From positions 257,578 through 321,577 of the forward strand of contig CAWENM010000003.1 in the NCBI GenBank assembly GCA_963810465.1: a DNA stretch of 64,000 nucleotides, read 5' to 3'. Position numbers and translations under genes: made by a program. The DNA comes from an uncultured Acidobacteriota bacterium. Lineage in GTDB: Bacteria; Actinomycetota; Acidimicrobiia; Spongiisociales; ZC4RG35. Position 1 is the stretch's first letter. Every line of letters starts with the position of its first letter. Positions 15,921 to 59,741 of this stretch are shown here, one piece after another. Under the pieces are notes generated by a model. The model had not been told where the DNA came from, searched no databases, and worked only from the letters and a program-made list of their open reading frames with translations.

Positions 15921-16418
15921 ATGGCACGGGTCCTTGTATTGAACGCCAGCTACGAGCCGCTCTCGGTGGTGACCACACGCCGGGCGGTCGTCCTCGTCCT
16001 CAACCAGAAGGCCAGCGTCGTCGTGGGGAAAGACGAGACGTGGAGCTCTGAGAGCGCCTCGATCGAAGTTCCCTCTGTGGTGCGTCTGACTCGATACGTG
16101 AAGGTTCCGTATCGCCGCGCCGCCCCCGTCACCCGACGTGCCGTCTTCGGGCGTGACGGCCATCGCTGCCAATACTGCGGAGGGCCGGCCGAGTCCCTCG
16201 ACCATGTGCTGCCCCGATCACGCGGTGGAGACCACAGCTGGGAGAACGTCGTCGCATGTTGTCGCCCTTGCAACATCTCCAAGGGGGATCGTCTCCCGAA
16301 AGAAGCCGGGCTCCGGCTGAGCAACAAGCCGGGCCCGCCACGACGGTATGCGTGGATCTACGCCTCCACCGGCTATCAGGTCGACCCGGCCTGGCATCCC
16401 TATCTCGAAGTCGCGTAG
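15921..16418 (+). CDS. HNH endonuclease
   Basis: HRCQYCGGPAESLDHVLPRSRGGDHSWENVVACCRPCNISKG is the HNH motif with Cys ligands. 165 aa. Confidence 0.8.
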   Translation: MARVLVLNASYEPLSVVTTRRAVVLVLNQKASVVVGKDETWSSESASIEVPSVVRLTRYVKVPYRRAAPVTRRAVFGRDGHRCQYCGGPAESLDHVLPRSRGGDHSWENVVACCRPCNISKGDRLPKEAGLRLSNKPGPPRRYAWIYASTGYQVDPAWHPYLEVA

Positions 16419-16428
16419 CCGTCTGATC

Positions 16429-16986
16429 GTGCCCCGGCTTCGCCCAGTGTCGGTGACCGACGCAGAGCAGATAGCCGCCATCTACGAGCCGTTGGTCCTG
16501 AGGACTGCCGTCTCCTTCGAATTGGATCCACCGGGGCCGGAGGAGATGGCGAGTCGAATCCAATCGGTCACCGCTAGTCATCCCTGGCTGGTCAGCGAGG
16601 AGAGCGGGGTGGTCCTCGCCTACGCCTATGCCACCGCGTTCCGCGGGCGCCCCGCCTACAGGTGGTCTGTCGAGACCACTGTGTACGTGAGCGAAGACCA
16701 TCGTGGGCGTGGAATCGGCGGAGATGTGTACCGGGGTCTTCTGGACCTCTCCACCCTCTGGGGCTTCGCCAACGCATATGCAGGGATCGCATTGCCCAAT
16801 CCGGGCAGCGAAGCCCTGCATGCCTCGCTCGGGTTCACCTCGATCGGGGTCTTCCCCAGGGCCGGGCACAAGATGGCGCAGTGGCACGACGTGGGCTGGT
16901 GGCACCGCCCACTGGCCTCGAGCGACCCGCCCCAGGAGCCGGCGCCTCCTGGCGAGGATCAGGTTCTCGCCCTCCTCACCCGCTGA
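16429..16986 (+). CDS. GNAT-family N-acetyltransferase
   Basis: In-frame GTG at 16429 follows the HNH stop. The acetyl-CoA binding motif (RGRGIGGDVYRGLLD) is typical of L-amino-acid N-acyltransferase-like GNATs. Confidence 0.7.
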   Translation: MPRLRPVSVTDAEQIAAIYEPLVLRTAVSFELDPPGPEEMASRIQSVTASHPWLVSEESGVVLAYAYATAFRGRPAYRWSVETTVYVSEDHRGRGIGGDVYRGLLDLSTLWGFANAYAGIALPNPGSEALHASLGFTSIGVFPRAGHKMAQWHDVGWWHRPLASSDPPQEPAPPGEDQVLALLTR

Positions 16987-17052
16987 ATCCGTCCGTATTT
17001 TCCTCACTTTTCGTCTTCTCCAGGTGTCTCGGTGTGGCAGTGATGGCATCGG

Positions 17053-17119
17053 GTGGGGCAAAAGGTTGACAAGTGGGGCGAAGTGGGCCATAGTGGCAGA
17101 CACGGCCCATGAGAAGTGG
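17053..17119 (+). promoter_or_regulatory. mraZ promoter with MraZ-box direct-repeat array (GTGGG/GTGGC repeats at 10-bp phasing)
   Basis: GTGGG lies at 17053, 17073, 17083 and 17115, and GTGGC at 17093. The core is AAGTGGGGCG-AAGTGGGCCA-TAGTGGCAGA, three consecutive 10-mers. TTGACA at 17065-17070, a 17-nt spacer and CATAGT at 17088-17093 look like -35/-10 elements. All sit 40-100 nt upstream of mraZ. Confidence 0.55.
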
Positions 17120-17155
17120 GGTCAGTGACATGAGGACGGACGGAGAAGCAAAGCA

Positions 17156-23363: not shown

Positions 23364-24658
23364 CCCGGGTACTCGTCCTCGGGGCCGGGGTCTCCGGCCT
23401 GGCGGCCGCCGCCCTCGCCCGGGACCGGGACATGCCGGTGACGATCTACACCCGGGATCAGCCCGAGATCGCTCTCGAAAAAGGCTTCCCGGTGGCCAGC
23501 GGCGGATGGGACCCGGTCTTGCTCACCGGCATCGACCTCGTCGTCACCAGCCCGGGATTCCCCGAACGTGCCCTACCCATCGTGGAGGCACTGGAATGGG
23601 GCATCCCGGTATGGAGCGAGGTCGAGTTTGCCTGGAGGCATCTCGATGTCCCGGTGGCGGCCGTCACCGGGACGAACGGGAAGACGACGGTCACCGAGGC
23701 CACTTCTGCCATGCTCGAGGCTTCGGGCATCGATGCTCCAGCGGCTGGCAATATCGGATCCGCCCTCTCAGAGCACGTCGACCGCGGTCACAAAGCTGTG
23801 GTAGTCGAGGTGTCCAGCTTCCAGCTTCGCTTCTGCGAGGAGTTTCACCCGACGGCGGCCGCCATCACCAATGTCGCCGTCGACCATCTCGACTGGCACG
23901 GATCGGAGCACTCGTATCGGGCAGCCAAAGCGAAGATATTCATGAACCAGACCGATGAGGATCTCCTGGTGTTCGATGCCGACGACGAAGGGGCCTCGTC
24001 GCTGGTCTCAGGGGCGCGGAGTGAGCTGTTCCCGGTTTCGGGAAGGCATCTCCCGTCTGGCGGTGGTGGCGTCGACGACGACCGTCTGGTCATCGGCGAG
24101 CTGACCATCTCGATTGGCGACCTGGTGTCCGATGACCCGACTCACCTGGTCAACATTGCGTCGGCCTCGGCCCTCGCCTTGCGCATGGGGGCGACTGCCG
24201 ATGGAGTGACCAGGGCGGCCAGGTCCTTCGCGCCCGGGCCCCACAGGAGATCGCTGGTTGCCAGAACTGGCGGCGTCACCTGGATCGACGACTCGAAGGC
24301 GACGAACACCCACGCTGCCCTCAGCTCGATCAGAGCCCACGACTCGGTGGTTCTCATCGCCGGAGGTTTGGCCAAAGGCATGGATGTGGCTCCGATTGCC
24401 CGAGAGCCGAATGTGCGATACCTGCTCGGCATCGGCGAGGCCGGTCCCGATCTGGCGGCGGCCGCAGGGGAGCGGGGCCGCGAGGCAGGCACTCTCGAGC
24501 GCGCCGTCGAGTTGGCGGCGGAACTGGCGGAGCCGGGGGACACTGTGCTTCTCGCTCCGGGCTGCGCCAGCTTCGACCAGTTCTCCTCTTACGCCGAGCG
24601 AGGCGACAGATTCGCTGCCCTCGTCCGATCGATCACGGATGAGGCAAGGTCCGGATGA
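23360..24658 (+). CDS. murD: UDP-N-acetylmuramoylalanine--D-glutamate ligase
   Basis: GTG at 23360 overlaps the mraY TGA. VLVLGAGVSG Rossmann N-terminus, VTGTNGKTT P-loop, DDSKATN. 432 aa. Confidence 0.88.
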   Translation: MTRVLVLGAGVSGLAAAALARDRDMPVTIYTRDQPEIALEKGFPVASGGWDPVLLTGIDLVVTSPGFPERALPIVEALEWGIPVWSEVEFAWRHLDVPVAAVTGTNGKTTVTEATSAMLEASGIDAPAAGNIGSALSEHVDRGHKAVVVEVSSFQLRFCEEFHPTAAAITNVAVDHLDWHGSEHSYRAAKAKIFMNQTDEDLLVFDADDEGASSLVSGARSELFPVSGRHLPSGGGGVDDDRLVIGELTISIGDLVSDDPTHLVNIASASALALRMGATADGVTRAARSFAPGPHRRSLVARTGGVTWIDDSKATNTHAALSSIRAHDSVVLIAGGLAKGMDVAPIAREPNVRYLLGIGEAGPDLAAAAGERGREAGTLERAVELAAELAEPGDTVLLAPGCASFDQFSSYAERGDRFAALVRSITDEARSG

Positions 24659-25818
24659 CGGCGAACGTGACATCGATTGCGAAGGTTCGGGCCGCCGCCC
24701 GAAGCCGCGCCGAGCGGCTCAAGATGAACAATCGCACCGCCACGGCGCTGCTTGTCCTGGCGGTGGTTCTGATCGTGATCGGCCTGGGCGCCACCCAGTC
24801 GGCGTCTTCTGTGGTGGCTATCGACCAGTCCGAGGACCGGTTCTATTTCTTCAAGCGGCAGTTGGTCGGGGTCGGCATCGGGACCGTGGCTCTCCTGATC
24901 ACCAGCCGGATCCCGTACCGGGTCTACCGCAGACTCGCCCTGCCCGGGTTCTTCGTCACTGTGGCGCTGTTGATCGCGGTGCTCGCGGTCGGTCCGGTCA
25001 TCGGCGGCTCCCAACGCTGGCTGCCGATCGCGGGCTTCAGCTTCCAGCCATCCGAGGTGGCCAAAGTGGCCATCGTCCTGGTATTGGCCCATCTCTTCGA
25101 GAAGAAGCACCGGCTCCTCACCCGCTTCGGCCATTTCCTTGTCCCGGTGGTGTTCACGGTCGGCGTGCTCGGTGGCCTGGTGATCCTCCAGCCCGACCTG
25201 GGAACGACGATCATCATCGGAGCTGCAGCGATGGCGGTGATCATGGCCAGCGACACACCGCTGAGGTACGTACTGGTCCTGACCGTCCTGGTTGTCCTTG
25301 CCGCATGGGTCCTCGCATTCGGCGACGAGTATCGGGTGGATCGCATCGTCGGGTTCCTCGACCCCTGGGGAAACGCCGACGGCGAGGGCTACCAGCTGAT
25401 ACAGGGCTACTACGCCCTGTCCAACGGCGGTCTCTTCGGGGTCGGGTTGGGCGCAAGCCGTGCCCGTTGGTTCTATCTGCCCAATGCCCACACGGACTTC
25501 ATCTTCGCCATCATCGGGGAAGAGACCGGGCTGATCGGGGGGCTGACGGTCATCGGCCTCTATATCGTCCTGGCACTGGCAGGGTGGATGGTCGCGATCA
25601 GGGCCCCGGATCGCTTCGGCAGGATGGTGGCGGCAGGTCTCACCGCCTGGCTCACATTTCAGGCAATCGTCAACATCGGCGGCGTTCTCGGCGTGATGCC
25701 GATAACGGGCATCTCGCTCCCGTTCGTCTCATTCGGGAGCACATCGCTGATCGTGTGCATGGCCTCTCTCGGCATCCTCGTCAACATCGCCCAGGCAGGG
25801 GTGCAACCCAAGACATGA
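24655..25818 (+). CDS. ftsW: SEDS-family peptidoglycan glycosyltransferase FtsW
   Basis: About 10 TM helices with FtsW/RodA motifs (QPSE...K, HTDFIFA, GGLFGVGLG). Follows murD with a 4-nt overlap. Confidence 0.88.
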   Translation: MTANVTSIAKVRAAARSRAERLKMNNRTATALLVLAVVLIVIGLGATQSASSVVAIDQSEDRFYFFKRQLVGVGIGTVALLITSRIPYRVYRRLALPGFFVTVALLIAVLAVGPVIGGSQRWLPIAGFSFQPSEVAKVAIVLVLAHLFEKKHRLLTRFGHFLVPVVFTVGVLGGLVILQPDLGTTIIIGAAAMAVIMASDTPLRYVLVLTVLVVLAAWVLAFGDEYRVDRIVGFLDPWGNADGEGYQLIQGYYALSNGGLFGVGLGASRARWFYLPNAHTDFIFAIIGEETGLIGGLTVIGLYIVLALAGWMVAIRAPDRFGRMVAAGLTAWLTFQAIVNIGGVLGVMPITGISLPFVSFGSTSLIVCMASLGILVNIAQAGVQPKT

Positions 25819-26888
25819 CCTTCCTCATCGCCGCAGCCGGCACCGGTGGCCACGTGTTCCCTGGGCTGGCCGTCGGCGAGGCCCTACTGACCCTTGGGAC
25901 GCCCAAGGACTCGATCCTCTATGTCGGCGGCGACAGGCTCGAGAAGTCGGTCTATCCAGAGTCGGGATTCCCTTTCCTCCAGGTGGAGGTGAGGGGTCTG
26001 CAGCGATCGATCACCACGAGGAACCTGAACCTGCCCCGTGTCGTTTGGCGTGCCCGGGACGTCATCATCGCCGCCATCGAGGAGAGAGATGTGAAGGTGG
26101 TGCTCGGAATGGGAGGTTATGTCACCATCCCCGCCGCCCTGGCCGCCCGGAGCTCCGGATCAGCGTTGGTCGTGGCCGAGCAGAACGCCGGCGGTGGTCT
26201 GGCCAATCGTGTCGCTTCGCGCTGGGCGGCACGGATATTCACCTCCTTCCCCGACACAGACGGCCTCGAGAGAGGGGAGTGGGTAGGCAACCCGGTCCGT
26301 GCCTCCTTGGCCAACCTGAATCGGGAGCAGACGAGACCGGAGGCTCTGGCCCATTACGGGCTCGATCCGGGATACCCGGTCCTCGGGGCCGTTGGCGGCT
26401 CGCTGGGGGCGGGATTGATCAATGGAGCGGTCGGGGATCTGGTCGAGAACTGGGAGGGGAGACGGATCCAGGTCTTGCATCTCACCGGCGAGGGCAACCT
26501 GGACCCGGATCAGAGGCCATCCGACTCGGTGCTCTGGGTACAACGCCCGTTCGAGAGGCGGATGGAGCTGTTCTACGCCGCCTGTGACCTGGTGGTGGCT
26601 CGGGCCGGGGGAGGAGTCGCCGAGCTGACCGTGACCTCGACCCCGTCGATCCTCATCCCCGGCGAGTTCGGCTCCTCAGGTCATCAGGCCGCAAACGCTG
26701 CCTTCTTACACGAGGCGGGTGCAGCAGAGGTTCTCGCTCAGGACCGCCTCGACCTGCTACCGGGCCTCGTCGCGGAGATCCTGCTGTCACCGGACCGGCT
26801 CGGGGCGATGAGGATCGGCGCCAGGAGCATCGCCAAACCCGACGGGGCGATCACAATCGCCGGTGCCATGCGGGATTTGTTGACATGA
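25815..26888 (+). CDS. murG: Undecaprenyldiphospho-muramoylpentapeptide beta-N-acetylglucosaminyltransferase
   Basis: ATG at 25815 overlaps the ftsW TGA (ATGA). N-terminus MTFLIAAAGTGGHVFPGLAV is the MurG G-loop. Only the C-terminal 357 codons of the 876-aa track ORF 24258..26888 are real. Confidence 0.88.
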   Translation: MTFLIAAAGTGGHVFPGLAVGEALLTLGTPKDSILYVGGDRLEKSVYPESGFPFLQVEVRGLQRSITTRNLNLPRVVWRARDVIIAAIEERDVKVVLGMGGYVTIPAALAARSSGSALVVAEQNAGGGLANRVASRWAARIFTSFPDTDGLERGEWVGNPVRASLANLNREQTRPEALAHYGLDPGYPVLGAVGGSLGAGLINGAVGDLVENWEGRRIQVLHLTGEGNLDPDQRPSDSVLWVQRPFERRMELFYAACDLVVARAGGGVAELTVTSTPSILIPGEFGSSGHQAANAAFLHEAGAAEVLAQDRLDLLPGLVAEILLSPDRLGAMRIGARSIAKPDGAITIAGAMRDLLT

Positions 26889-37468: not shown

Positions 37469-37840
37469 GTGGCCAGACAGCTCGCCAAGTCAACCGTAGA
37501 CAAATTCCGGTCGAGACTGGAAGAGGAGCAGGCGCGGCTTCAGGGGCTCGTCGACGATTACGAGCAAGAATTGGAAGAGGCGCGACTCTCAGAGAGCTCG
37601 TCCGACCGCAGTCCCGACCCCGGCAATGCCGAAGCCAGCTCGACGAAGCTGGAGTACGCCAAGGAGCTCTCGATCGAGCAGAACACACTCGATCTACTCA
37701 GCAAAGTCGAGCGGGCGTTGGAGAAGATAGAACAGGGCACATACGGCATATGCGAGAGCTGTGGCAAGTCGATTCCCCTGGCCAGACTCGACGTCCTTCC
37801 CTACGTGACGCTCTGCGTCGACTGCGCACGCAAGGCTTGA
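37469..37840 (+). CDS. TraR/DksA-family C4-type zinc-finger regulator
   Basis: Coiled-coil N-terminus plus C-terminal CESCGKSIPLARLDVLPYVTLCVDC (CxxC-17-CxxC). Divergent from ileS and upstream of lspA. Confidence 0.75.
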   Translation: MARQLAKSTVDKFRSRLEEEQARLQGLVDDYEQELEEARLSESSSDRSPDPGNAEASSTKLEYAKELSIEQNTLDLLSKVERALEKIEQGTYGICESCGKSIPLARLDVLPYVTLCVDCARKA

Positions 37841-38298
37841 TCCGCCGGTACGCCCTAGGGGTCGGGTTGGCCGCGTTCGTCGTTCTCCTCGACGTGATCA
37901 CCAAGCGATGGGCATCGATCGAGCTCGTCGACAGCGACATAGTGATCATCCCCAACTTCCTGGTGCTCACCTATACCGAGAACCCTGGCGCTGCCTTCTC
38001 GATGTTCGAGAACGCCGGCCCGTTCTTCGGCATCGCGGCCATCACTGTCAGTGCGGCGCTCCTCTGGTCTCTCCGGCTGGAGCGCCCGTGGATGGAGACG
38101 GCCGCCTACGGCCTGATCATCGGTGGCGCGCTGGGGAATCTCGTCGACAGGGTGTTTCGCGGGCCCGGTCTGCTCGATGGGAGGGTCATCGACTGGATCG
38201 ATCTCTGGTGGATCCCGACTTTCAACGTGGCCGACATGTCGATCACGATCGCGGTCGGGCTGCTACTGATACACGCGTGGCTGACACGCTCGACCTAG
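37837..38298 (+). CDS. lspA: Lipoprotein signal peptidase (signal peptidase II)
   Basis: TTG at 37837 overlaps the upstream TGA. Four TM helices. Conserved LspA motifs NPGAAFS and FNVAD (catalytic Asp). Confidence 0.8.
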   Translation: MIRRYALGVGLAAFVVLLDVITKRWASIELVDSDIVIIPNFLVLTYTENPGAAFSMFENAGPFFGIAAITVSAALLWSLRLERPWMETAAYGLIIGGALGNLVDRVFRGPGLLDGRVIDWIDLWWIPTFNVADMSITIAVGLLLIHAWLTRST

Positions 38299-39197
38299 AG
38301 GTACCCGAGCGCCTCGAAGGGCAACGGGTCGACAAAGTACTGGCCGACCTGCTCCACTTGAGTCGTGCCCAGGCCCGAGCCCTGCTCGATGCGGGCGTGC
38401 TTCTCGACGGCGCTCCGGCCCGGCCCAGCGACCGGGTTCGCACCGGGGCGGTGGTCGTGTCCCCTGCGCCTGAGGTCGCCATTGGGCTCGTGGCCGAGCC
38501 GGTCGATTTCGGGGTGATCTACGAGGATCCAGACATGATCGTGGTCGATAAGCCCGCCGGCCTCGTCGTCCACCCTGGTTCCGGTCACGAGCGCTCCACT
38601 CTGGCGGCCGGCTTGCTTTATCGATATCCGGAGCTCGAGGGTGTGGGGGCAGTGGGGCGCTGGGGCCTGATCCATCGGCTCGACCGGGACACATCCGGCG
38701 TCCTGCTCGTTGGTCGAACGGCTGCATCCTTCGAGCGGCTCAACTCTGACATGGCACGACGACGGATACGAAGGCTCTACACGACGCTCGTTCATGGCAC
38801 CTTTGCCACCCCCACTGGAACCATCGACGCCCCGATCGGCCGTGATCCGGACCGGCCGACGAGGCGAGCTGTCGTCCCTGGTGGGAAACCTGCAGTCACC
38901 CATTACGAGGTCGTCGAGGAGTTCACCCCGGCGGATGTGTCTTTGCTCGAAGTGGCACTGGCGACGGGCCGCACCCACCAGATCAGGGTCCACATGACCG
39001 CCATCGATCACCCGATCGTCGGCGACAAGGCCTACTCGAGCATGAACAAGGCCGTCGAAAGCCCACGAATCTTCCTCCATGCCCAGCAGGTGAGTCTGCA
39101 TCATCCCGTCACCGAGGAGGAGCTCACCTTCACGTCGCCAGTGCCATCCGATCTGACCGAAGTCCTCGATTTCGTCCGTTCCGCGGAGGAGGGGTAA
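38277..39197 (+). CDS. rluD: RluA-family 23S rRNA pseudouridine synthase (RluD-like)
   Basis: GTG at 38277. S4-like N-terminal domain. HRLDRDTSGVLLVG has the catalytic Asp in the HRLD motif. KAYSSMNK C-terminal motif. lspA-rluD is a conserved pair. Confidence 0.85.
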   Translation: MADTLDLEVPERLEGQRVDKVLADLLHLSRAQARALLDAGVLLDGAPARPSDRVRTGAVVVSPAPEVAIGLVAEPVDFGVIYEDPDMIVVDKPAGLVVHPGSGHERSTLAAGLLYRYPELEGVGAVGRWGLIHRLDRDTSGVLLVGRTAASFERLNSDMARRRIRRLYTTLVHGTFATPTGTIDAPIGRDPDRPTRRAVVPGGKPAVTHYEVVEEFTPADVSLLEVALATGRTHQIRVHMTAIDHPIVGDKAYSSMNKAVESPRIFLHAQQVSLHHPVTEEELTFTSPVPSDLTEVLDFVRSAEEG

Positions 39198-39224
39198 GCC
39201 CATGACGGCGATACCGTTCCGGCC

Positions 39225-40052
39225 GTGACCCAGGATCACACCACAACGCCGGTCTGCTATCGGCACCCTGATCGGAGCACCCTGCTCAGCTGCAACCACT
39301 GTGGCCGGCCCATCTGTTCTTCGTGCTCGACCGACGCCTCGGTCGGGCAGCGCTGTCCTGAGTGCATGAGAGAGGAGGGGACGCAAAAGGTGATCCCCAC
39401 CGGATCCCGAAGCCGAACGACTGCGACGTCGGGCGCACCGGCCACCGTGACCTTCATCGCCGTGGCGGTGATCTTCTACCTGCTCGACGCCTTCGGCATC
39501 GTGGAAGGACTGGTGCCCCGCTTTGCCCAGATAAACGTCCTTGTCGAGGAAGGTGAGTGGTGGCGGATCTTCACCGTGGTCCTGCTCCACGGGTCTATCA
39601 CCCACATCCTGTTCAACATGTGGGCGCTGTGGGCGCTCGGTCCCCAAATCGAGCGTGGGGTGGGAACATGGCCTTTCATCAGTCTTTTTCTGGCCTCGGC
39701 CGGGGTCGGTGGGGTCTTTGCCTATTACCTGGGAGATATCAACGACATTGCTATCGGTGCCTCCGGCGCCATCTTCGGTCTGTTCGGCATCTGGCTGAGC
39801 TGGGCGCTGCACCGGAGAAACACGATGCAGGGGAGGGCATTGCTCAGCCAGCTGATCTTCCTCCTCGTCATCAACGCAGCCATCCCTTTCGTATTCAGGA
39901 ACATCTCGTGGCAGGCTCACCTGGGCGGGCTCATCGCCGGGTTTGTGATAGGCGAGATCTGGAGCCGGATCAGAGGCCCCAATGCGGAGGCGATGCGGGC
40001 CTGGGTCGGCTTCGCCATCGCAGCGCTGGCCGCACTGGCCGTCGCCATCTGA
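39225..40052 (+). CDS. Rhomboid-family intramembrane serine protease with N-terminal zinc ribbon
   Basis: N-terminal CYRHP...CNHCGRPICSSCS...CPEC (4-Cys ribbon). Rhomboid core has the catalytic GASGAIFGL Ser and a downstream His (AHLGGLIAGF). Confidence 0.8.
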   Translation: MTQDHTTTPVCYRHPDRSTLLSCNHCGRPICSSCSTDASVGQRCPECMREEGTQKVIPTGSRSRTTATSGAPATVTFIAVAVIFYLLDAFGIVEGLVPRFAQINVLVEEGEWWRIFTVVLLHGSITHILFNMWALWALGPQIERGVGTWPFISLFLASAGVGGVFAYYLGDINDIAIGASGAIFGLFGIWLSWALHRRNTMQGRALLSQLIFLLVINAAIPFVFRNISWQAHLGGLIAGFVIGEIWSRIRGPNAEAMRAWVGFAIAALAALAVAI

Positions 40053-40098
40053 CGGAATCCATGCTGTCCCGGTCGAGGTTGCCATCCTGGGAACGGCA

Positions 40099-41535
40099 AT
40101 GACGGTCCCCAAGTCGATCCTCTCCCGCGAGTTGCTGCCGGCGTCGGTCGCCATCTTCACGACCGTTGCCATCGTTGCCTTCGAGGGTCTGGCCGTCACC
40201 GCCGCCCTCCCCGACCTCACCGCCGAGCTCGGCCAGGTGCATCTCCTGCCGTGGGTCATCACTGCCTTTCTGCTGGCCTCGGGTGTGATGACCGCTATCG
40301 CCGGATCGTTCATCGATTCCGTCGGGACGTCCACCGTGTTCAGGTGGGCGACATTCGCCTTCGCCGCTTCCTCGCTCGCTGCCGCCGCTGCGGGATCGAT
40401 GCCGATGCTGGTCGCCACACGTGTTCTCCAGGGCGCCGCGGGCGGGGCAATCATCTCGGTCGGAGTGGGCGCCGTGGCCCTGGTCTATCCGAGCCATCTC
40501 GTCGGCAGAGCGTTTGCCGCCAATTCGAATGTGTGGGGCGTACTGGGCATCGCCGGTCCTGCCATCGCGGCGGCTTTGCTCCAGGTGGGCTCCTGGCGAT
40601 GGATCTTCTTGCTGATGGTGCCCATCTCTGCCGTGGCTCTGGTCGCGGGCTGGGGAACCCTGCCCGGCCCGGTCGATCCCGCCCCCCTTCGAGTCGACTG
40701 GGTGGCGGTCGGGTTGTTGGTAGTGACCTTCGGAGCTCTCTTGGCAGCAGTGTCGAACTTCTCGATGTTCTCGGCCATCTTCGCCGCGGTCGCGGTGCTG
40801 GCGGGGGTGGTGTTGTGGCGAAGGATGGCCCGGGGCCGATCGAGTTTGCTCGACCCCCGGTTTGTGGGGGCATACCCCTATCGCCAGCTCGCGCTGACGG
40901 TGTCGCTGACGTTGGTTGCCATGATCGGTCTGTCGTCGTATCTGCCCGTCTATGTCCGTGGCGCCCGGGGCGGCACGGCGGCCGCGGCAGCCTGGTCGGT
41001 CTTGTGGCTCACCCTTGGGTGGACCACGGCCGCCAACATCTCCGGTCGCATCACCGATCGGGTGAGTGAGCGGGCTGTGCTCCGGGTGGCAGCGATCGGG
41101 GGAGTTCCCGCCATCGCCGCTGCTTGGGCCGCTGTCTCCTTCTCGGCCCCGCTACCGGTCGTCTATGCCTGCTACTTCGCAATGGGAATGTCTGTGGGTG
41201 CGGTGACCAACTCCGCGTTTCAGATGGTGCGTCTTGCGGTTGCCGACAACCTGGCAGGCCGGGCAACGTCAGCCCATGCCTTCCTGCGTACCGTCGGGAT
41301 GTCGGTTGGGGCAGGCCTGGCCGGGGGAGTGATCCTGGCAACGGTGGCGGCCTCGGTAGGCGACATCTCTACGGTTCGGGAGGCTCTGGCGGGGGCCGCG
41401 ACGGATCTGGCTGGTCCAACAGCGACCGCCCTGGCGGACGGCTTCTCGATCGCCCATGGGGTGAGTCTGATGATCATGCTGACGGCAGTCATGATTTCGA
41501 GGCGTCTGGGGAGCGACGTGAAAACTGGAACCTAA
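40099..41535 (+). CDS. MFS transporter (drug:H+ antiporter-like, about 14 TM)
   Basis: ATG at 40099 (MTVPKSIL...). Fourteen hydrophobic segments. MFS motif A-like region (ATRVLQGAAGGAII). Confidence 0.75.
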   Translation: MTVPKSILSRELLPASVAIFTTVAIVAFEGLAVTAALPDLTAELGQVHLLPWVITAFLLASGVMTAIAGSFIDSVGTSTVFRWATFAFAASSLAAAAAGSMPMLVATRVLQGAAGGAIISVGVGAVALVYPSHLVGRAFAANSNVWGVLGIAGPAIAAALLQVGSWRWIFLLMVPISAVALVAGWGTLPGPVDPAPLRVDWVAVGLLVVTFGALLAAVSNFSMFSAIFAAVAVLAGVVLWRRMARGRSSLLDPRFVGAYPYRQLALTVSLTLVAMIGLSSYLPVYVRGARGGTAAAAAWSVLWLTLGWTTAANISGRITDRVSERAVLRVAAIGGVPAIAAAWAAVSFSAPLPVVYACYFAMGMSVGAVTNSAFQMVRLAVADNLAGRATSAHAFLRTVGMSVGAGLAGGVILATVAASVGDISTVREALAGAATDLAGPTATALADGFSIAHGVSLMIMLTAVMISRRLGSDVKTGT

Positions 41536-41584
41536 AACAGCACGAGGGAGCGACCCGGAGGGTCGTTGCCTTGTGCTACCTTGA

Positions 41585-44500
41585 ATGACAGCCGTGTCAT
41601 TCGCACACCTCCACGTCCACACCGAGTATTCGATGCTCGACGGTGCGGCCCGGATCAAGGACGTGGTGGCGGCAGCGGCGGCCGATGGGCAACCGGCGAT
41701 TGCCATCACCGACCATGGCGTCCTGTACGGAGTCGTCGACTTCGTGAAGGAGGCGAAGGCTGCCGGCATCAAGCCCATCGTTGGCATCGAGGCGTACCTG
41801 ACCGAGGGCTCCAGATTCGACCGGCCGGTTGGCAACGCGAATCGGCGCTTCCACATGAACCTGCTCGCCGAGAACGAAGTCGGATATCGCAACCTCCTCC
41901 AGCTCTCCTCGCGAGCGTTTCTCGAGGGCTATTACTACAAGCCGCGGATGGACTTCGAGCTGCTGGCCGAGCACTCTGAAGGGATCATCGCCACCTCAGG
42001 CTGTCTCGGCGGGATGGTGGCGCAGCTCCTCGCTCCCGATTCGATGAGCGAGGAGGGGAACAAGGGCCAGATGCGGGACTTCGACGCCGCAATGGCCTCC
42101 GCGGGGAGGTTCCAGGACATCTTCGGGAAGGACAACTTCTTCATCGAGGTCCAGGACCATGGGCTGGCCGCCCAGCGAGCGATCATGCCCGACCTCATCG
42201 AGATCTCATCCCGGACCGGGGCGCCCCTGCTCGCCACCAACGACGCTCATTACACCCATCGCGCCGAGCACGATGCCCATGATGTGCTGCTGTGCATTCA
42301 GACCGGCTCGCTCCGGGCTGAGACGAGCCGACTGCGATTCGAAGGGAATGAGCATTATCTGAAGACGGCGGAGGAGATGCAGCGCCTCTTCCCGGCCGAC
42401 ACCTTCCCCGGGGCTTGTGACAACACCCTCTCGATCGCGGAGCGGGTCGATGTCGACCTCGACTTCGGGAGGATCCTCCTGCCCAGCTTCCCTGTTCCTT
42501 CGGACGAGACGGAGGTGAGCTATCTCCGGAGGCTGGTCGACCAGGGAGCGAGAGACCGCTACGGCCATGATGCCGCCTCCGAAGTCTGGGACCGCGTCGA
42601 GCACGAGTTGAAGATCATCGAGGAGATGGGCTTCCCCGCCTACTTCCTCATCGTGTGGGACCTGATCCGCCATGCCCGGGAGAGCGGCATCCGCGTAGGC
42701 CCCGGTCGGGGGTCGGCGGCGGGGTCGATCGTGTCGTATTGCCTGCGAATCACCGACATCGACCCCCTCGCCTACGGTCTCATCTTCGAGCGCTTCCTCA
42801 ACCCCGGTCGCCGGCAGATGCCCGATATCGACATGGACTTCGACGAGCGCTACCGGGCGGACATGATCAAATACGCCGCCCAGAAGTACGGGCCCGATCG
42901 GGTCGCCCAGATCGTCACCTTCTCCACGATCAAGGGCAAGCAGGCGCTGCGGGATGCGGCCAGGGTTCTCGGCCATCCGTACGGTGTGGGCGATCGAGTC
43001 GCGAAGGCGATGCCTGCCGCCATTCTCGGCCGCGAGGCAACCCTCGAGCAGGTGATGACACCTCCTCCATCCGATGCCGATTCGACGGCCAAGGACTGGT
43101 ATGCCAACGCCCAGGGTCTTCGGGACCTCTATGAGGCCGACCCGGCGGTGCGGGAGACGGTCGATGCAGCCCGCGGGCTGGAGGGTTTGCGCCGGCAGGA
43201 CTCGATCCACGCCGCCGCCGTGGTCATCGCCCCGGAGCCATTGATCAACGTGGTCCCCATCCAGCAGAAGGGCGAGGGCGCCGAGGTGGTGACGCAGTAC
43301 GAGATGTACGGCGTCGAGTCATTGGGCTTGCTCAAGATGGACTTCCTCGGGTTGCGCAACCTGTCGATCATCGAGCGTTGTCTGGAGCTGGTCGAGGAGG
43401 GCACAGGGGAACGGGTCGACATCGACGGTGTCCAACTCGACGACGCCAAGACCTTCGAGTTGCTCCAGTCCGGCAACACCATCGGTGTCTTCCAGCTCGA
43501 GGGCAACGCGATGCGGTCGCTGATCCGCTCACTGAAGCCAGATTCGTTCGACGACGTCATCGCTCTCGTGGCCCTCTATCGCCCGGGCCCGATGGGGGCC
43601 AACATGCACAACCTCTACGCCGACCGCAAGAACGGGCGGGCCCCCATCGAGGAGCTGCATCCCGCACTCACCGACAAGCTGGCCGACACCTACCAGATCA
43701 TGGTGTACCAGGAGCAAGTCATGTCGGTCGCCCAGGAGATGGCCGGCTACTCGATGGTCGACGCCGACAACCTGCGCCGGGCCATGGGCAAGAAGATCAA
43801 GGCGGTGATGAAGGCCGAGGAGGAGAAGTTCGTCGCCGGCAGTGTCGCCCAGGGCCACGACGAGAAGGTGGGTCGTGAGATCTTCGGGCTCATCGAGCAC
43901 TTCTCGGGGTACGGGTTCAACAAATCTCATTCGAGCGGCTACGGCCTCGTTGCCTATCAGACCGCATTCCTGAAGGCGCATCACCCCGCCGAGTACCTCG
44001 CCGCCCTGCTCACGGCCACCAAGAAGGACAAGGACCGGACCGCCATCTATCTCAACGAGTGCAGGCAGATGCGGATCGAGGTGCTCGTGCCCGATGTCAA
44101 TGAGTCAGACTCCGACTTCACGGTGAAGGACAGCCGGATCCGCTTCGGGCTGTCGGCGGTCCGCAATGTTGGTGAGGGCGTGGTGGAGAAGGTCGTCGAG
44201 GCGCGGGCCGAGGGCCCATTCGACTCCTTCCATGACTTCGTCGATCGGGTCGATGTGTCGGCCCTCAACAAACGCACGGTCGAGTCCCTGATCAAAGCCG
44301 GAGCCTTCGATGCCATGGGCTACCCGAGAAAAGGCTTGACCGTGGTGTTCGAGCAGATCCTCGACGCAACCCTGGAGCGCCGGCGCAACGAGGACATGGG
44401 CCAGTTCAGCCTGTTCGCGGGCGAGCCGGGGGAGGTCTCACACGGTCGTATCGAGGTGCCCGACTTGATCTGGCCGCAGAAGATCAAGCTCGCCTTCGAG

Positions 44501-55003: not shown

Positions 55004-55822
55004 ATGAGCCTCACCGAGCCGCATCTGGCCCCGTCGGCACCCGAGCTGGTTTGGTTCGGAGGCGCCGATGCGATCCGTTTCCTCAATGATTTGATCAGTC
55101 AGGAGATCGGCGACATGGAGCCCGGGTCGGTCCGACGATCGCTGCTGCTCACGCCGCAGGGCAAGCTCGACCACATCCTCTGGGTTCTCCGAGGAGACGA
55201 TGAGGTGGGCTTGGTGGTGGATGCCGACCAGGGCGAGGATCTGGCAGCCAAGCTGGGCCGTTATCGGATCCGGGTCGATGTCGAGATCGCTCCGTCGACC
55301 CTCGAGCGGTGGCTCGTCGTTGCGCCGTTCGGGGCGGATCCCGGGCGGTGGACTGGCGATCGTGGCGAATTGATGGCCGACGTGTCCTGGTCGAACCTCG
55401 AGCGGACGCTGGTGGTGGGGGAGAGGCCGGACCTTCCGTGATGGAAGTCGAGGATTACGAGTCTGCTGCGCATTGAAGCCGGGGAGCCACTGATGGGCGT
55501 GGATGTCACCGACGCCACCATCCCTCAGGAGACCGGTCTCGTCGCGGAGACGATCTCATTCAACAAGGGGTGCTTTCTCGGTCAGGAGTTGGTAGCCCGT
55601 CTCGACAGTCGGGGAGGACGGGTCAACCACCATCTCCGCATCCTGCGCTTCGACGGTTCGGCGCCGGAGGTGGGCACCGAGGTCACCAAGGATGGCGAGC
55701 AGGTGGGGGTGCTCAGCTCGGCAGCAGACCGTATCGGGCTGGCATTACTCCGGCGGGGGGTCGAACCGGGGGATACGGTGACGGTGGGTGACGGTCGAGC
55801 GTCGGTGGATGCGGTTCCGTAG
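55004..55822 (+). pseudogene. YgfZ/GcvT-like folate-binding protein interrupted by an in-frame TGA at 55439-55441
   Basis: ORF 55004..55441 has the N-terminal GcvT-like domain. The same reading frame continues right after the TGA with WKSRITSLLRIEAGEPLMGVDV...FNKGCFLGQELVARLDSRG, the YgfZ KGCY(F)xGQE signature. ORF 55493..55822 in the track is that downstream portion. Confidence 0.75.
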
Positions 55823-55856
55823 AGTGACCCGCTCGGGCGTAGACATCAGCCACGTG

Positions 55857-55940
55857 TGCCGGAGGCGGGATTCGAACCCGCACGGGGTTTCCCCCAATGG
55901 TGTTTGAGACCATATTGTCTACCAGTTCCAACACTCCGGC
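55857..55940 (-). tRNA. tRNA-Leu (anticodon CAA), class II with long variable arm; CCA not encoded
   Basis: Reverse complement folds as acceptor GCCGGAG/CTCCGGC, D-stem TTG/CAA with GGTAGA loop, anticodon stem ATGGT/ACCAT with loop CTCAAAC, 15-nt variable arm, T-arm GCGGG-TTCGAAT-CCCGC, discriminator A. Closely parallels E. coli tRNA-Leu(CAA). Confidence 0.9.
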
Positions 55941-55951
55941 GTGACCACATT

Positions 55952-56769
55952 TTACCGGTCAATGCTTGGGACCGATAAAGGTGTCCATATAGGCCACATC
56001 TTCACGGCGGGCGATCGAAATGTCACGCGGGGTGGTCTGCGTCCAATGACTCCGAGCAGATCTAGGGCGTCGGTGAAGATCCCCAGGATGTCGGTGGAAA
56101 CATTGGTGAACATGTAGCGCGGATAGCGATAACGCCGGGGACCGGATCGGAGCTTCCGGATCACTTCGTTGACGTGCCGGTTGCCGTCAGAATGGATCAG
56201 ACCACGGACCAGGGCCTTGGGATGACCAGCAATGATCACGTCCTGCCACCGTTCGAGCTCGATGTGACGATTGTGTTTGCGGCCAGGGCCATGTTGCGGG
56301 AAGAGGCAAAGCCAGTGTTTCCAGTCGGAGTAGACCTCGACGCATCCCTTCTTCGAGATGAACCCCACTTGCTCGGTGGCTCGGGTGACGACGATTGAGC
56401 CGGCGATCTCGTCGATGATGTCGGGTACTTGAGGTCACACACGATCCGCAAGCGATAGACGTCCCGAGGCACGAGGCAGAGGCAGCCGTCGCCCAAGTAG
56501 GCCCCGAGGAGATATGCATACGCCTCCTCGTCGACCCATCCGCCGATGCATCGAAAGCAGGTGGCTTGGCGTCTGCCGGACCAAAATTTGGTGCGGCCAC
56601 CGCTACCCGAAGCCACGCCGACCCGCCAGTCTCGAATCGTGCCGCGGGGAATCCCGAGACGACGGCCGATCTCGCAGTCGTTGATCCCGATGTCGATCAG
56701 TTGGATAGCTCGGCGGTATTCCTCTTCCGACCTCATGACGTGAACCCTTTCTTCGAAGGTACAAGCCAC
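55952..56769 (-). pseudogene. Free-standing HTH plus double-LAGLIDADG homing-endonuclease-like gene, frameshifted (-1)
   Basis: ORF 56236..56769 has an HTH (IQLIDIGINDCEIGRRLGIPRGTIRDWR) and a first LAGLIDADG motif (YLLGAYLGDGCL). ORF 55952..56368 in another frame carries the second motif (KALVRGLIHSDGN). Adding 1 nt after codons CDLKYP joins them into about 270 aa (…CDLKYPDIIDEIAGSIVVTRATEQVGFISKKG…). Confidence 0.65.
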
Positions 56770-56826
56770 CTAGGACAGAATCGACGTTGTCGATATCGCC
56801 GAATAGGGGGATACCCTGCGCATGTC

Positions 56827-57102
56827 GTGAAGCGCGTCCACCGCCGGCTGTTTCGGCTCAATGATCAGATCGACTCCCTCAACCGGGAGTTGCGGTTGGT
56901 GAACGCTGAGCTCTCCAATCATCGCTCGATCGACGAGGACGCCCAGCGTGATGCGGTCGTGGGCAACTACATCGATCGTGAAGAGGCGGGGCGAACGGCA
57001 GGCGATGTCCGTCGGTTCGAGAGGACCGCCTTCTATCTCCGGGTTCGTCGAGCCAAGCTGATCAAGACCAGGGATCGACTGCTCACCCGTCTGCCCGACT
57101 GA
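56827..57102 (+). CDS. Small coiled-coil hypothetical protein (91 aa from GTG)
   Basis: ORF in the 56566..57102 frame from GTG 56827 (VKRVHRRLFRLNDQIDSLNRELRLVNAELSN...). No family recognised. Sits between the endonuclease remnant and polA. Confidence 0.3.
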   Translation: MKRVHRRLFRLNDQIDSLNRELRLVNAELSNHRSIDEDAQRDAVVGNYIDREEAGRTAGDVRRFERTAFYLRVRRAKLIKTRDRLLTRLPD

Positions 57103-57128
57103 TCGGGCACGCCGCTACCGTCAGCCTC

Positions 57129-59741
57129 GTGCCCACACTTGCCCTGATCGACGGTAACTCCGTCGCTTATCGGGCCTTCTACGCCCTCCCCGAGGACCTG
57201 GCGACCAAGGGCGGCCAGGTGACGAATGCAGTGTTCGGATTTACCCGGATGCTGATCAGGCTGCTCAAGGACTACCACCCTGATGGCATCGCTGTCGCCT
57301 GGGACGTGTCCCGTCAGACCTTTCGAACCGAGTCTTATCCGGAGTACAAGGCGCAACGAGAGAAGGCGCCGGATCACTTCCGCAGCCAGCTGCCACTGAT
57401 GGACGAAGTGCTGCAGACGCTCAACATCACCCAGCTCAGGGCGGAGGGTTTCGAGGCGGACGACATCATCGCCACTCTCGCCAGGAATGGGGTAGCCGCC
57501 GGATGGGAGGTCCTCATCGTCACAGGTGACCGCGACGCATTTCAGCTGATCGAAGGGGCTGTGAAGGTGGTCTACACACGCCGCGGCATCAGCGACATCG
57601 TCCTGGCGGACGATGCGTATGTCGAGGAGAAGTACGGCATCAGACCCGACCAGTACGTCGAGTACGCGGCCCTGAGAGGCGACACGTCGGACAATCTGCC
57701 CGGCGTGCCCGGAGTGGGGGAGAAGACGGCCTCACGACTGATCGCCGACCACGGTGACCTGGACAACTTGTTCCTGGCCGTGACCGACCTGACACCGAAG
57801 CTCAGGGAAAACCTGTCCGCACATCGTGAGCAGGTCTTCCTCAACAGGGAGCTCATGCGCCTCATCGACGACATGGATCTGGGGGTCGAGATCGAGGGCC
57901 TTCGCACCAAGGAGTGGGATCGGAATCAGGTCAAAGATCTGTTCGACAGTCTCGAGTTTCACTCCATGTGGAACGACCTGGAACAAGCCCTTCCCTCGGC
58001 CGCCACGCAGTCAGAGCTCGTGGAAGTCGAGTCGTTCCTTGTCACCATGCCCGATCAGGTCGCCGCCATGGCGAAGGAGCCCGTCCTCATCGCGGGATTG
58101 GTGAACGATGGCGGCGAGCCCTTCGGGCTTGCCGTTTCCAGGGGTCCCGGGGAGGCGGCCGTGGTGCCTTTCGATTCGGCCGGCCCACTTCTCGACGCCC
58201 TCGAGAACGGGCAGGCGGCCCTTGCCGGTCACGATGTGAAGGACCTTGTGCGGGTGTTGCTCGAGATGGACCGCGACGTGGACCGGCTGGCGATGGACAC
58301 CGCACTTGCCGCCTACATCGTCAACCCGTCACAACGCACTTATGACCTCGAGGAGCTGGCGGACCGTCTGCTCGGACTCGAGCTGGTCTCGCCGGATGAC
58401 GACGGCGCGGCTCTGGGAACCTTGCCGTTCGACAGCGGGCCCGATCTCGAGACCGAGGGCCGCAGGATCGAAGGCGTTCGGCGGCTGGTCGAAGTCATGC
58501 GCTCCGAGTTGTCCGACCGCGAGGAAGGCGAGCTCTTCGAGGAGTTCGAGCTCCCCTTGATCCCGGTCCTCGCCCGAATGGAGCACGCCGGCATCGCGGT
58601 GGACCGCGCCTATCTCGAGAATATGGGCGCCGACTTGAGGGAGAAACTCACCGCCCTCGACGCCCGGATCCAGGAGCTGGCGGGGGAGCAGTTCAACGTC
58701 AACTCGACCGACCAGCTCCGCTATGTCCTCTTCGAGAAGTTGGCGCTCCCGGTGATCAAGAAGACCTCCACGGGCAAGCCATCCACCGACGCCTCCGTCT
58801 TGAAGAAGCTGGATCATCCTGTGGTTGAGGCCCTCCTCGAGTACCGGGAGTACGAGAAGTTACGGGGCACGTATGTCGACGGGTATCTGCCATTGGTCGA
58901 CCCCGACGGTCGAATCAGGACCCGGTTCAATCAGATGGCGGCGACGACCGGGCGCTTGTCTTCCGATCGTCCCAATCTGCAGAACATCCCGATACGTTCC
59001 GAGTCGGGCCGCACCATTCGCCGTGCCTTCATCGCCGGGGAAGGCGCGGAGTTCCTGGTGGCCGACTACTCCCAGATCGAGTTGAGGGTCCTGGCTCACA
59101 TGAGCGGGGACCCCTTCCTGGTGGAGGCTTTCCGTTCCGGCTCCGACATCCACACCGCCACCGCGGCTCGGGTTTGGGGGCTTACCGAGCCCGACGTGAC
59201 CGCCAATCAGCGCCGCACGGCCAAGATGATCAACTTTGGCCTGCTCTATGGGATGGAGGCATTTGGACTGGCCGACCGTCTCGGCATCTCACGGGACGAG
59301 GCGCAACAGCACATGGATGCCTACTTCTCACAGTTCGTGCAGGTCAAGGAGTTCATGTCGGCGATGGTCACCCAGGCCCGGAACCAGGGCTACACCACGA
59401 CGCTCTTTGGGCGACGGCGCTATCTGCCTGAGCTCAAGTCGGACAACTTCCGCATTCGTCAGATGGGTGAGCGCATGGCCCTGAACGCCCCTGTCCAAGG
59501 CACTGCCGCCGACATAATCAAGAAGGCGATGATCGATCTCGACGCCAGTCTGCGATCCGAGGGGCTGGCCTCCACATTGATCCTCCAGATCCATGACGAG
59601 CTCATTTTGGAGAGCCCACTCGATGAGCTGGAGGTCGCGGAGAAGCTGGTAGTGGGGACGATGGAGGGCGTGGTCGCCCTCGATGTGCCGCTCGACGTCG
59701 ATGTGGCCACCGGCCCCGATCTGGCATCGGTGAAGAGCTGA
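57129..59741 (+). CDS. polA: DNA polymerase I
   Basis: 5'-3' exonuclease domain (LALIDGNSVAYRAFYA), vestigial 3'-5' exo region, and Pol A motifs (DYSQIELR motif A, KMINFGLLYG motif B, QIHDELIL motif C). 870 aa. Confidence 0.92.
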   Translation: MPTLALIDGNSVAYRAFYALPEDLATKGGQVTNAVFGFTRMLIRLLKDYHPDGIAVAWDVSRQTFRTESYPEYKAQREKAPDHFRSQLPLMDEVLQTLNITQLRAEGFEADDIIATLARNGVAAGWEVLIVTGDRDAFQLIEGAVKVVYTRRGISDIVLADDAYVEEKYGIRPDQYVEYAALRGDTSDNLPGVPGVGEKTASRLIADHGDLDNLFLAVTDLTPKLRENLSAHREQVFLNRELMRLIDDMDLGVEIEGLRTKEWDRNQVKDLFDSLEFHSMWNDLEQALPSAATQSELVEVESFLVTMPDQVAAMAKEPVLIAGLVNDGGEPFGLAVSRGPGEAAVVPFDSAGPLLDALENGQAALAGHDVKDLVRVLLEMDRDVDRLAMDTALAAYIVNPSQRTYDLEELADRLLGLELVSPDDDGAALGTLPFDSGPDLETEGRRIEGVRRLVEVMRSELSDREEGELFEEFELPLIPVLARMEHAGIAVDRAYLENMGADLREKLTALDARIQELAGEQFNVNSTDQLRYVLFEKLALPVIKKTSTGKPSTDASVLKKLDHPVVEALLEYREYEKLRGTYVDGYLPLVDPDGRIRTRFNQMAATTGRLSSDRPNLQNIPIRSESGRTIRRAFIAGEGAEFLVADYSQIELRVLAHMSGDPFLVEAFRSGSDIHTATAARVWGLTEPDVTANQRRTAKMINFGLLYGMEAFGLADRLGISRDEAQQHMDAYFSQFVQVKEFMSAMVTQARNQGYTTTLFGRRRYLPELKSDNFRIRQMGERMALNAPVQGTAADIIKKAMIDLDASLRSEGLASTLILQIHDELILESPLDELEVAEKLVVGTMEGVVALDVPLDVDVATGPDLASVKS

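Follow-up and report, generated by a model that had tools for sequence, protein, structure and literature searches.

A gene lying between a tRNA-Leu(CAA) gene and polA was analyzed in a stretch of 64,000 nucleotides (nt) of contig CAWENM010000003.1, hereafter the window, by which we mean the whole of that stretch. On balance, we favour the reading that it is an intact, free-standing LAGLIDADG endonuclease gene, forming a homing-type exchangeable cassette tied to the tRNA-Leu(CAA) locus. The family to which it belongs is large, chromosomal, unnamed and spread across Actinomycetota. The main features of the locus, with the evidence for each in brackets, are the following:

55959..56736, minus strand: repaired endonuclease coding sequence, 778 nt as written, in three frames (six-frame translation, homolog alignment)
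56236..56769 and 55952..56368, minus strand: two open reading frames (ORFs) covering the gene as written (ORF list)
55856..55940, minus strand: tRNA-Leu(CAA) of type II, whose variable arm is long (ARAGORN; Rfam tRNA, 52.8 bits)
57129..59741, plus strand: polA (ORF list)
55941..56811, minus strand: insert relative to empty sites, ~870 nt (alignment of filled and empty loci)
55189..56690: hyper-divergent allelic tract (comparison of the window with the assemblies L082 and L083)

A first-pass annotation, made from the sequence alone, had described the two ORFs as carrying a helix-turn-helix (HTH) domain and LAGLIDADG motifs 1 and 2, with tRNA-Leu(CAA) and polA as neighbours, and all of these were found in place. 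It had also read the gene over two frames, with one repair yielding a product of roughly 270 aa. The gene in fact runs through three frames and two 1-nt deletions have to be mended; once the two missing bases are restored, translation from the ATG at 56736 gives 259 aa. Close homologs are 257–262 aa long, align over 100% of the repaired protein and do not use the GTG at 56769 as a start. The stop codon is separated by 18 nt from the start of tRNA-Leu(CAA) on the same strand.

Filled and empty sites and exchange of the cassette

Comparison of the tRNA-Leu/polA interval in relatives, a check proposed at first pass, was made on the 80 related loci returned by a metagenome scan with the 91-aa ORF that precedes polA. 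In 55 of them, tRNA-Leu(CAA) stood upstream of the 91-aa ORF and polA at a median spacer of 63 nt and without an endonuclease gene, whereas in 16–17 the endonuclease gene lay exactly between the tRNA and the 91-aa ORF, with a spacer of 815–909 nt. Roughly three in four of the related Acidimicrobiia loci thus lack the gene at this site, and these filled and empty sites at one position are a real insertion polymorphism. When filled loci (the window and L084) were aligned with empty ones (L086, L089, L092 and L094), the left edge of the insert fell where the tRNA has its 5′ end (window 55940) and the right edge at ~56811, directly before a ATACCCTGCGCA box that is conserved and shortly precedes the 91-aa ORF. 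The insert consists of one gene, ~870 nt with short flanks, and the filled L084 differs in this way from the empty L086 and L089 at 93–95% polA identity. Degenerate copies were also present: L104 has undergone an internal deletion that left only residues 1–38 and 207–258, the copies of L100 and L108 are frameshifted, and those of L005 and L045 are broken.

Two features on the polA side of the gene had been tentatively assigned to the same islet at first pass:

56827..57102, plus strand: 91-aa predicted coiled-coil ORF directly 5′ of polA (no significant Pfam match)
56789..56803: palindrome ATCGAC-GTT-GTCGAT (sequence check)

Almost every Acidimicrobiia-type relative sampled has the 91-aa ORF upstream of polA, whether its endonuclease site is filled or empty. 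Since it is present in filled and empty loci alike, it belongs with polA, and its membership in the islet was rejected. The palindrome does exist, but it sits in a 38-nt segment that is missing from L001 and L084; because 14 other filled loci do not conserve it, it was dropped as a candidate operator. A promoter and terminator scan of 55700..57200 returned nothing useful. The search for att-like or target-site repeats around the insert revealed no tRNA-derived repeat and only a weak 15-nt pair, an imperfect direct repeat at 55762..55776 (CGAACCGGGGGATAC) and 56800..56814 (CGAATAGGGGGATAC) that brackets the tRNA and the endonuclease gene together with the end of ygfZ and is probably due to chance.

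The similarity of the cassette and that of its flanks disagreed in both directions across comparisons. Between strains with 99–100% identical flanks, the endonuclease diverged by 25–50%, with sharp recombination boundaries. The two assemblies with the window's exact polA protein, L082 and L083 (ENA samples ERZ25039550 and ERZ25039565), have endonuclease genes that are 76% identical despite flanks of 99–100% identity, and Acidimicrobiia alleles whose genomes have polA 93–100% identical are only 70–76% identical to one another in DNA. The reverse order holds for L087 and L088, which are closer to the window than L084 in polA (95–98% vs. 93% identity) and more distant in the endonuclease (75% vs. 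93%). In the Actinomadura pair L011/L014, pyk is 99% identical and the endonuclease protein 69%, with identity collapsing exactly at the 5′ end of the tRNA. Similarly, in cultured isolates of Streptomyces that were selected because their PdtaR proteins are identical, pyk and pdtaR DNA was at least 99.4% identical, tRNA-plus-gene segments 59% identical and endonuclease proteins 51% identical. The divergent tract of these isolates covers ~980 nt, from the last ~55 nt of the gene to the start of pdtaR. The 3′ 340 nt of the gene are common to L174 and L180, which points to a mosaic origin, and degenerate copies occurred among these isolates as well (a frameshift in L179, an N-terminal deletion in L168).

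A separate observation concerns the window and L084, whose tRNA and endonuclease gene are 90–97% identical per 100 nt, while most of their flanks are at ~76–92% and a few flanking windows reach 96%. This pattern, the opposite of that seen between L082 and L083, suggests from the sequences compared a recent horizontal spread of the allele.

The encoded protein and its family

When the repaired window protein was searched against Pfam, NCBIfam and PDB sequences, the single match was to HTH_23 (Pfam, E = 3e-5, just under the gathering score), with nothing from NCBIfam and nothing meaningful from PDB. No LAGLIDADG Pfam model matched the window protein, the 89%-identical homolog P0001 or the L082 allele (E ≤ 10 or E ≤ 1). 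Direct profile searches gave no more than this sub-threshold HTH_23 match, and it took profiles at the level of the family, together with a structure model, to assign the protein to LAGLIDADG. A set of 85 diverse family members, 36–48% identical to the reference, was matched by PF14528 (LAGLIDADG_3) in 78 cases (E ≤ 1; best E = 4.5e-8) and by HTH_23 in 79. By the letter of the first-pass annotation, the failure of the window protein to match these profiles would refute the LAGLIDADG proposal; given the matches of its relatives, however, the family-level evidence overrides the missing match. The family profile also gave weak matches to I-AniI (motif 1), I-Tsp061I (motif 2) and I-DmoI. The domains and motifs lie in the window as follows:

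~56620..56724, minus strand: HTH domain, three helices, residues ~4–42 (Pfam HTH_23, model)
56479..56514, minus strand: LAGLIDADG motif 1, YLLGAYLGDGCL, aligned to I-AniI YAYLVGLYEGDG; D83 is the putative catalytic aspartate
56243..56302, minus strand: inter-domain segment FPQHGPGRKHNRHIELERWQ, residues ~139–165 (lowest column entropy in the family)
56180..56212, minus strand: LAGLIDADG motif 2, LVRGLIHSDGN, aligned to I-AniI GFIEAEGC and to I-Tsp061I; D184 is the putative catalytic aspartate

The AlphaFold2 model of P0001 (predicted local distance difference test, pLDDT, 90) comprises an N-terminal domain with helices 4–15, 20–27 and 31–42, a low-confidence linker carrying a CxxC motif, and a core of two alpha-beta-beta-alpha-beta-beta-alpha halves (H70–82, E, E, H105–119, E, E, H173–184, E, E, H215–227, E, E, H245–255; H, helix; E, strand). 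In a Foldseek search of PDB with this model, the top 50 matches were all LAGLIDADG proteins at a probability of 1.00, among them homing endonucleases such as I-Tsp061I (E = 1e-7), I-AniI, I-DmoI and I-OnuI, engineered variants, bI3 maturase and one endonuclease-bearing intein. The 78 PF14528 matches, the confident model and the Foldseek result back the earlier proposal of an HTH plus double-LAGLIDADG protein, and the window protein is predicted to be a monomeric two-motif LAGLIDADG endonuclease with an N-terminal HTH that would cut DNA.

Among the 85 members, D83 (YLGDG) is invariant together with L81, G82 and G84, and D184 (HSDG) is at least 90% conserved next to the invariant G179, L180 and G185. 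Both aspartates are present in the window and align to the GDG and AEG positions of I-AniI, which we take to be D16 and E148. The most conserved stretch of the family is the inter-domain segment, with the pattern WKHW.CLFPQHGPGxKHxRxIxLxxWQ and the invariant residues P147, G152, K154, R157 and Q165; we know of no counterpart in characterised LAGLIDADG enzymes. Within the core, beta-strand positions are more variable than helices, often in alternation, which would fit a changing DNA-contact face. The CxxC of the linker between HTH and core lies at 56548..56559 on the minus strand (residues 60–63), and C100, C132 and C144 are invariant among close relatives; these cysteines may form a metal site.

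Homing endonucleases perform site-specific double-strand cleavage of a long (14–40 bp) target, and LAGLIDADG enzymes reside typically, though not obligatorily, in a self-splicing intron or an intein. Such residence was not seen here: the gene is a stand-alone ORF, and no Rfam family besides tRNA was found in the window. With I-Tsp061I, I-DmoI, I-AniI and I-OnuI, the window family shares a predicted two-half fold packed via the LAGLIDADG helices, an acidic residue at the end of each motif, presence or absence at one site, and degenerate copies. It differs from that class in lying outside introns and inteins beside a bacterial chromosomal tRNA gene, in its additional N-terminal HTH and in the conserved FPQHGPGxKHxRxIxLxxWQ; its cutting is a prediction. 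The genes of T4 Seg/Mob, F-CphI and yeast HO are likewise stand-alone nuclease genes beside, and not inside, their targets, with spread or switching by gene conversion and co-conversion of flanks, and added DNA-binding modules are known both in phage enzymes (NUMOD/HTH) and in HO (zinc finger). The window gene resembles them in standing alone, in adjoining its presumed target and in its added DNA-binding module. However, the phage free-standing enzymes T4 Seg/Mob and F-CphI are of the GIY-YIG or HNH type, whereas the window family is LAGLIDADG. HO is itself a free-standing LAGLIDADG enzyme (PMC3384342); it is eukaryotic and intein-derived, whereas the partner of the window family is the chromosomal tRNA-Leu(CAA) gene across a bacterial phylum.

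The family is very numerous. Homologs of the repaired protein made up 7,650 of the 8,000 scored candidates, nearly all of them 257–262 aa long at 100% coverage; an exhaustive search yielded 2,759 family clusters at 50% identity, and at least 577 stretches of one-genome-per-species contigs encode a relative. Hosts include Streptomyces, Actinomadura, Nocardioides, Kribbella, Nonomuraea and Mycolicibacterium, in addition to Solirubrobacterales, Thermoleophilia, Acidimicrobiia and one Dormiibacterota genome. Public annotations name the members ‘helix-turn-helix domain-containing’ or hypothetical proteins, and our literature searches found no description of an HTH plus LAGLIDADG family linked to tRNA-Leu(CAA). 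The 50,697 phage and 72,556 plasmid records searched contained no homolog, and a phage- or plasmid-borne origin was dropped on that ground.

Adjacency to tRNA genes was counted in 80 loci kept from the at least 577, one genome per species. A tRNA with anticodon CAA was the immediate neighbour in 76 of the 80. These neighbours show at least three arrangements, with the tRNA co-oriented with the endonuclease gene in 70 of the 76 and on the opposite strand in six. Most Actinomycetes have the tRNA on the same strand as the endonuclease gene and 30–230 nt upstream of it; Acidimicrobiia and some others have it 11–46 nt downstream, also on the same strand. Three of the four exceptions adjoin another tRNA-Leu (TAG or CAG), and the fourth has no tRNA. 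The context in Actinomycetes is conserved (liv ABC transporter, pdtaR, tRNA, endonuclease, then pyk) and the protein tree tracks taxonomy at high level, so that the locus is old and, for the most part, inherited with the chromosome. As for leucine tRNAs with other anticodons, the members of L049, L057 and L062 (Mycolicibacterium, Thermoleophilaceae and Solirubrobacterales) stand beside tRNA-Leu(TAG) or tRNA-Leu(CAG), and several Solirubrobacterales loci have a cluster of Leu, Trp, Gly and Pro tRNAs nearby; the link of the family may extend to tRNA-Leu genes more generally.

Partner tRNAs, proposed mechanism and a regulatory alternative

No tRNA sequence was common to filled (12 unique) and empty (43 unique) sites, and C at loop position 38 was found in 4 of the 12 filled-site tRNAs against 1 of the 43 from empty sites (Fisher p = 0.006, phylogeny ignored). 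In Actinomycetes, the partner is either a long-arm tRNA-Leu of 84–88 nt or a short-arm tRNA(CAA) of 74–78 nt, the latter scoring 49–58 bits on the Rfam tRNA model. Sister taxa may differ in which of the two forms they have, and so may members of a single Streptomyces species group. At the position between pdtaR and the gene followed by pyk, type I and type II tRNA-Leu(CAA) occur as alternative alleles, ~100–130 nt upstream of the gene (L010, L014, L015, L076, L175–L183 and many others). The idea that each endonuclease clade goes strictly with one tRNA type was rejected, since partners of both types are interspersed among sister sequences.

The type I tRNA-Leu(CAA) of Streptomyces coelicolor is leucylated by ScoLeuRS, and some Streptomyces are without it, for which no explanation was offered (PMC6614811). 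The short-arm tRNAs of the cassette, 74–78 nt long with a CAA anticodon and a short variable loop, belong to this type I. Beyond that study, both tRNA types are seen here as alternative alleles inside a hyper-variable endonuclease cassette.

In the mechanism that we propose, the endonuclease would recognise a long DNA site in or beside those alleles of the tRNA-Leu(CAA) locus that lack the gene or carry a different allele of it, and would make a double-strand break with the two conserved aspartates. Recombinational repair would then copy the endonuclease gene and the linked tRNA allele into the cut chromosome, and a cycle of invasion, fixation, decay and loss would be expected, as in homing. 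The same-strand position by an essential tRNA probably supplies transcription to the gene, a suggestion prompted by the co-orientation in 70 of 76 loci. Spread of this kind would lead to filled and empty sites, sharp mosaic divergent tracts around the tRNA and occasional degenerate copies. Mobility is indicated by filled and empty alleles at one site, the disagreement between cassette and flanks and the degenerate copies; a directional bias in the exchange is presumed. The first-pass annotation had wavered between a degenerating selfish element and a domesticated nuclease; empty sites, decay and exchange mostly settle this in favour of a selfish or mobile gene. Its degeneration in this genome was not borne out, and the gene is no stray insert and not clearly a domesticated one.

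Several points weigh against this homing-type reading. Pfam and NCBIfam fail to recognise the window protein as LAGLIDADG, and cutting at or near tRNA-Leu(CAA) alleles followed by repair-driven spread is what we infer, with the target being a guess. There is no single insertion point, because the gene lies 5′ of the tRNA in Acidimicrobiia and 3′ of it in Actinomycetes. L087 has the window's tRNA yet a 74%-identical endonuclease gene, so that alleles are not strictly co-inherited; the comparison of tRNAs from filled and empty sites is uncorrected for phylogeny; and the argument, given below, that the frameshifts of the window are artefacts is built on assemblies from samples other than the window's. 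Furthermore, 18 of the 20 Streptomyces loci sampled carried the gene in intact form, and the high-level tree follows taxonomy; a long history of vertical inheritance would be compatible with a host function as well.

The last two points also favour the main rival to the homing reading, a domesticated LAGLIDADG/HTH regulator of tRNA-Leu(CAA) or its neighbours, WhiA-like, vertically inherited and no longer a mobile nuclease, as do the HTH domain, the stable context in Actinomycetes from the liv ABC transporter through pdtaR, the tRNA and the gene to pyk, and the zero copies in phage and plasmid collections. We regard it as rather unlikely. WhiA has its LAGLIDADG part at the N-terminus and its HTH at the C-terminus, and it no longer possesses the catalytic residues (PMC3384342). 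Like WhiA (DUF199), the window family joins a LAGLIDADG fold and an HTH in an actinobacterial protein, but it has the two parts in the opposite order and retains the pair of catalytic aspartates across the phylum; in addition, WhiA is universal and single-allele, whereas the window family gene is polymorphic and dispensable. Identity with WhiA was ruled out by the N-terminal HTH, the kept aspartates and the absence of a Pfam WhiA match to the window protein or to the 85 family members. About three quarters of the related Acidimicrobiia sites are empty, proteins can be as little as 51% identical between strains whose flanks are at least 99.4% identical, with sharp and mosaic boundaries, and pseudogenes and truncated copies occur, a pattern that would be unexpected for a housekeeping regulator.

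If the homing-type reading is true, Actinomycetota harbour an undescribed and very large family of free-standing LAGLIDADG endonucleases, tied to one essential tRNA gene, and this would be a rare case in which a bacterial chromosome carries a homing-type element that resides in neither an intron nor an intein. The family would then offer hundreds of natural rare-cutting enzyme variants with a probable target next door to each, together with a testable cause for the puzzle of type I versus long-arm tRNA-Leu(CAA) stated in PMC6614811. As a more tentative extension, it is possible that the cassette acts as a cut-and-replace drive, in which the endonuclease cuts rival tRNA-Leu(CAA) alleles and the cassette brings a resistant functional tRNA. 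Such an arms race between nuclease and tRNA would explain the within-species tRNA diversity and compensated stem changes, as well as the type I/type II tRNA-Leu(CAA) dimorphism of Streptomyces.

Frameshifts in the window and minor alternatives

The two lesions in the endonuclease gene and the neighbouring gene on its other side, which appears to be interrupted as well, are located as follows:

56422/56423, minus strand: first 1-nt deletion, after CDLKYP (column with C in L082 vs. G in L083)
56048/56049, minus strand: second 1-nt deletion, before HWTQTT (column with A in L082 vs. C in L083)
55004..55822, plus strand: ygfZ-like (GCV_T / CAF17) gene, seemingly split by an in-frame TGA at 55439..55441

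In six-frame translation, the first frame of the endonuclease gene reads MRSEEEY...YLLGAYLGDGCL...CDLKYP, the second DIIDEIAG...FPQHGPGRKHNRHIELERWQ...LVRGLIHSDGN...DALDLLG, and the third, read past the deletion at 56048/56049, supplies the true C-terminus HWTQTTPRDISIARREDVAYMDTFIGPKH and the stop codon. The first lesion had been assigned at first pass to a short C run. An intact relative reads TACCCGGAC at 56422/56423, which places the lost base in a GG pair, and L001 and L082 have TACCCGGA where the window has TACCCGA.

The window, L082 and L083 are 99–100% identical outside 55189..56690; inside this tract, which takes in two thirds of the ygfZ-like gene on its 3′ side, the tRNA, and all but the first ~15 codons of the endonuclease gene, L082 and L083 are 66–94% identical per 100 nt. 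Both the endonuclease gene (259 aa) and the ygfZ-like gene (272 aa) are intact in L082. Between the window and L082, 21 differences fall within the tract (16 substitutions and 5 insertions or deletions, indels), compared with six substitutions and zero indels in ~7 kb of shared flanks, and all assembly errors identified in the window lie inside it. The four deletions in the window (55438, 55941, 56048 and 56422) all lie on columns where L082 and L083 differ, and the sole insertion (55462) abuts such a column. Moreover, 14 of the 16 in-tract substitutions relative to L082 correspond to the L083 base, and bases 56050–56052, beside the second deletion, match the L083 haplotype.

These patterns, in sequences examined at the level of the assemblies, make it very probable that the frameshifts of the window are consensus artefacts of two mixed haplotypes. 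Both frameshifts and the ygfZ-like stop would have arisen because two very different co-existing alleles were collapsed during assembly; the in-frame TGA at 55439..55441, caused by the −1/+1 indel pair at 55438 and 55462, is thereby explained as well. In L083, too, the consensus is broken up into several frames, which probably has the same cause. The endonuclease gene is thus most likely intact in the real genome. The possibility of a sequencing error, raised at first pass, was borne out by the intact L082 gene and the haplotype-polymorphic indel columns, and the suggestion of a degenerating copy is contradicted by the intact gene of L082, which has the same polA protein and near-identical flanks. 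The practical lesson is that hyper-variable cassettes of this kind introduce spurious frameshifts into assembled metagenomes.

That the copy is a genuine pseudogene, inactivated recently and with real deletions, is, by comparison, improbable. The frameshifts do stand in the window sequence, and degenerate family copies exist elsewhere, isolate genomes included. However, it would be left to coincidence that every deletion falls on a haplotype-polymorphic site, with the insertion abutting one, and that most in-tract substitutions carry the base of the other haplotype. The ygfZ-like neighbour is ‘broken’ in the same way, the flanks hold no indels and L082 is intact; the gene shows no other decay, and its repaired product is 89% identical over 100% of its length to an intact homolog.

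Slightly less probable still is a host conflict or defence module, in which diversifying selection, exerted by tRNA-targeting toxins or phages, drives the tRNA allele together with a nuclease that serves the host. The extreme within-species allelic diversity of tRNA and gene, the lack of shared tRNA sequences between filled and empty sites and the type I/type II tRNA-Leu(CAA) dimorphism at the locus would all suit such a module. On the other hand, no companion defence genes were seen, although the anti-phage defence profile library was not scanned, and the single-gene insert, empty sites, decay and recombination tracts are what homing predicts, whereas a module of this kind needs an extra, unknown agent. 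The remnant of an integrase-type integrative element, for which one might cite the common use of tRNA genes as integration (attachment) sites and the weak 15-nt direct repeat at 55762 and 56800, is very improbable, since there is no integrase and no partial tRNA duplication or tRNA-derived repeat, the insert is a single ~870-nt gene, and the same single gene adjoins the tRNA across the phylum.

Elsewhere in the window, a crude map based on GC content at third codon positions (GC3) left several gaps of 0.6–1.5 kb without a high-GC3 ORF, namely 4173–4768, 16415–17129, 23572–24643, 25815–26588, 37697–39198 and 40049–41585.

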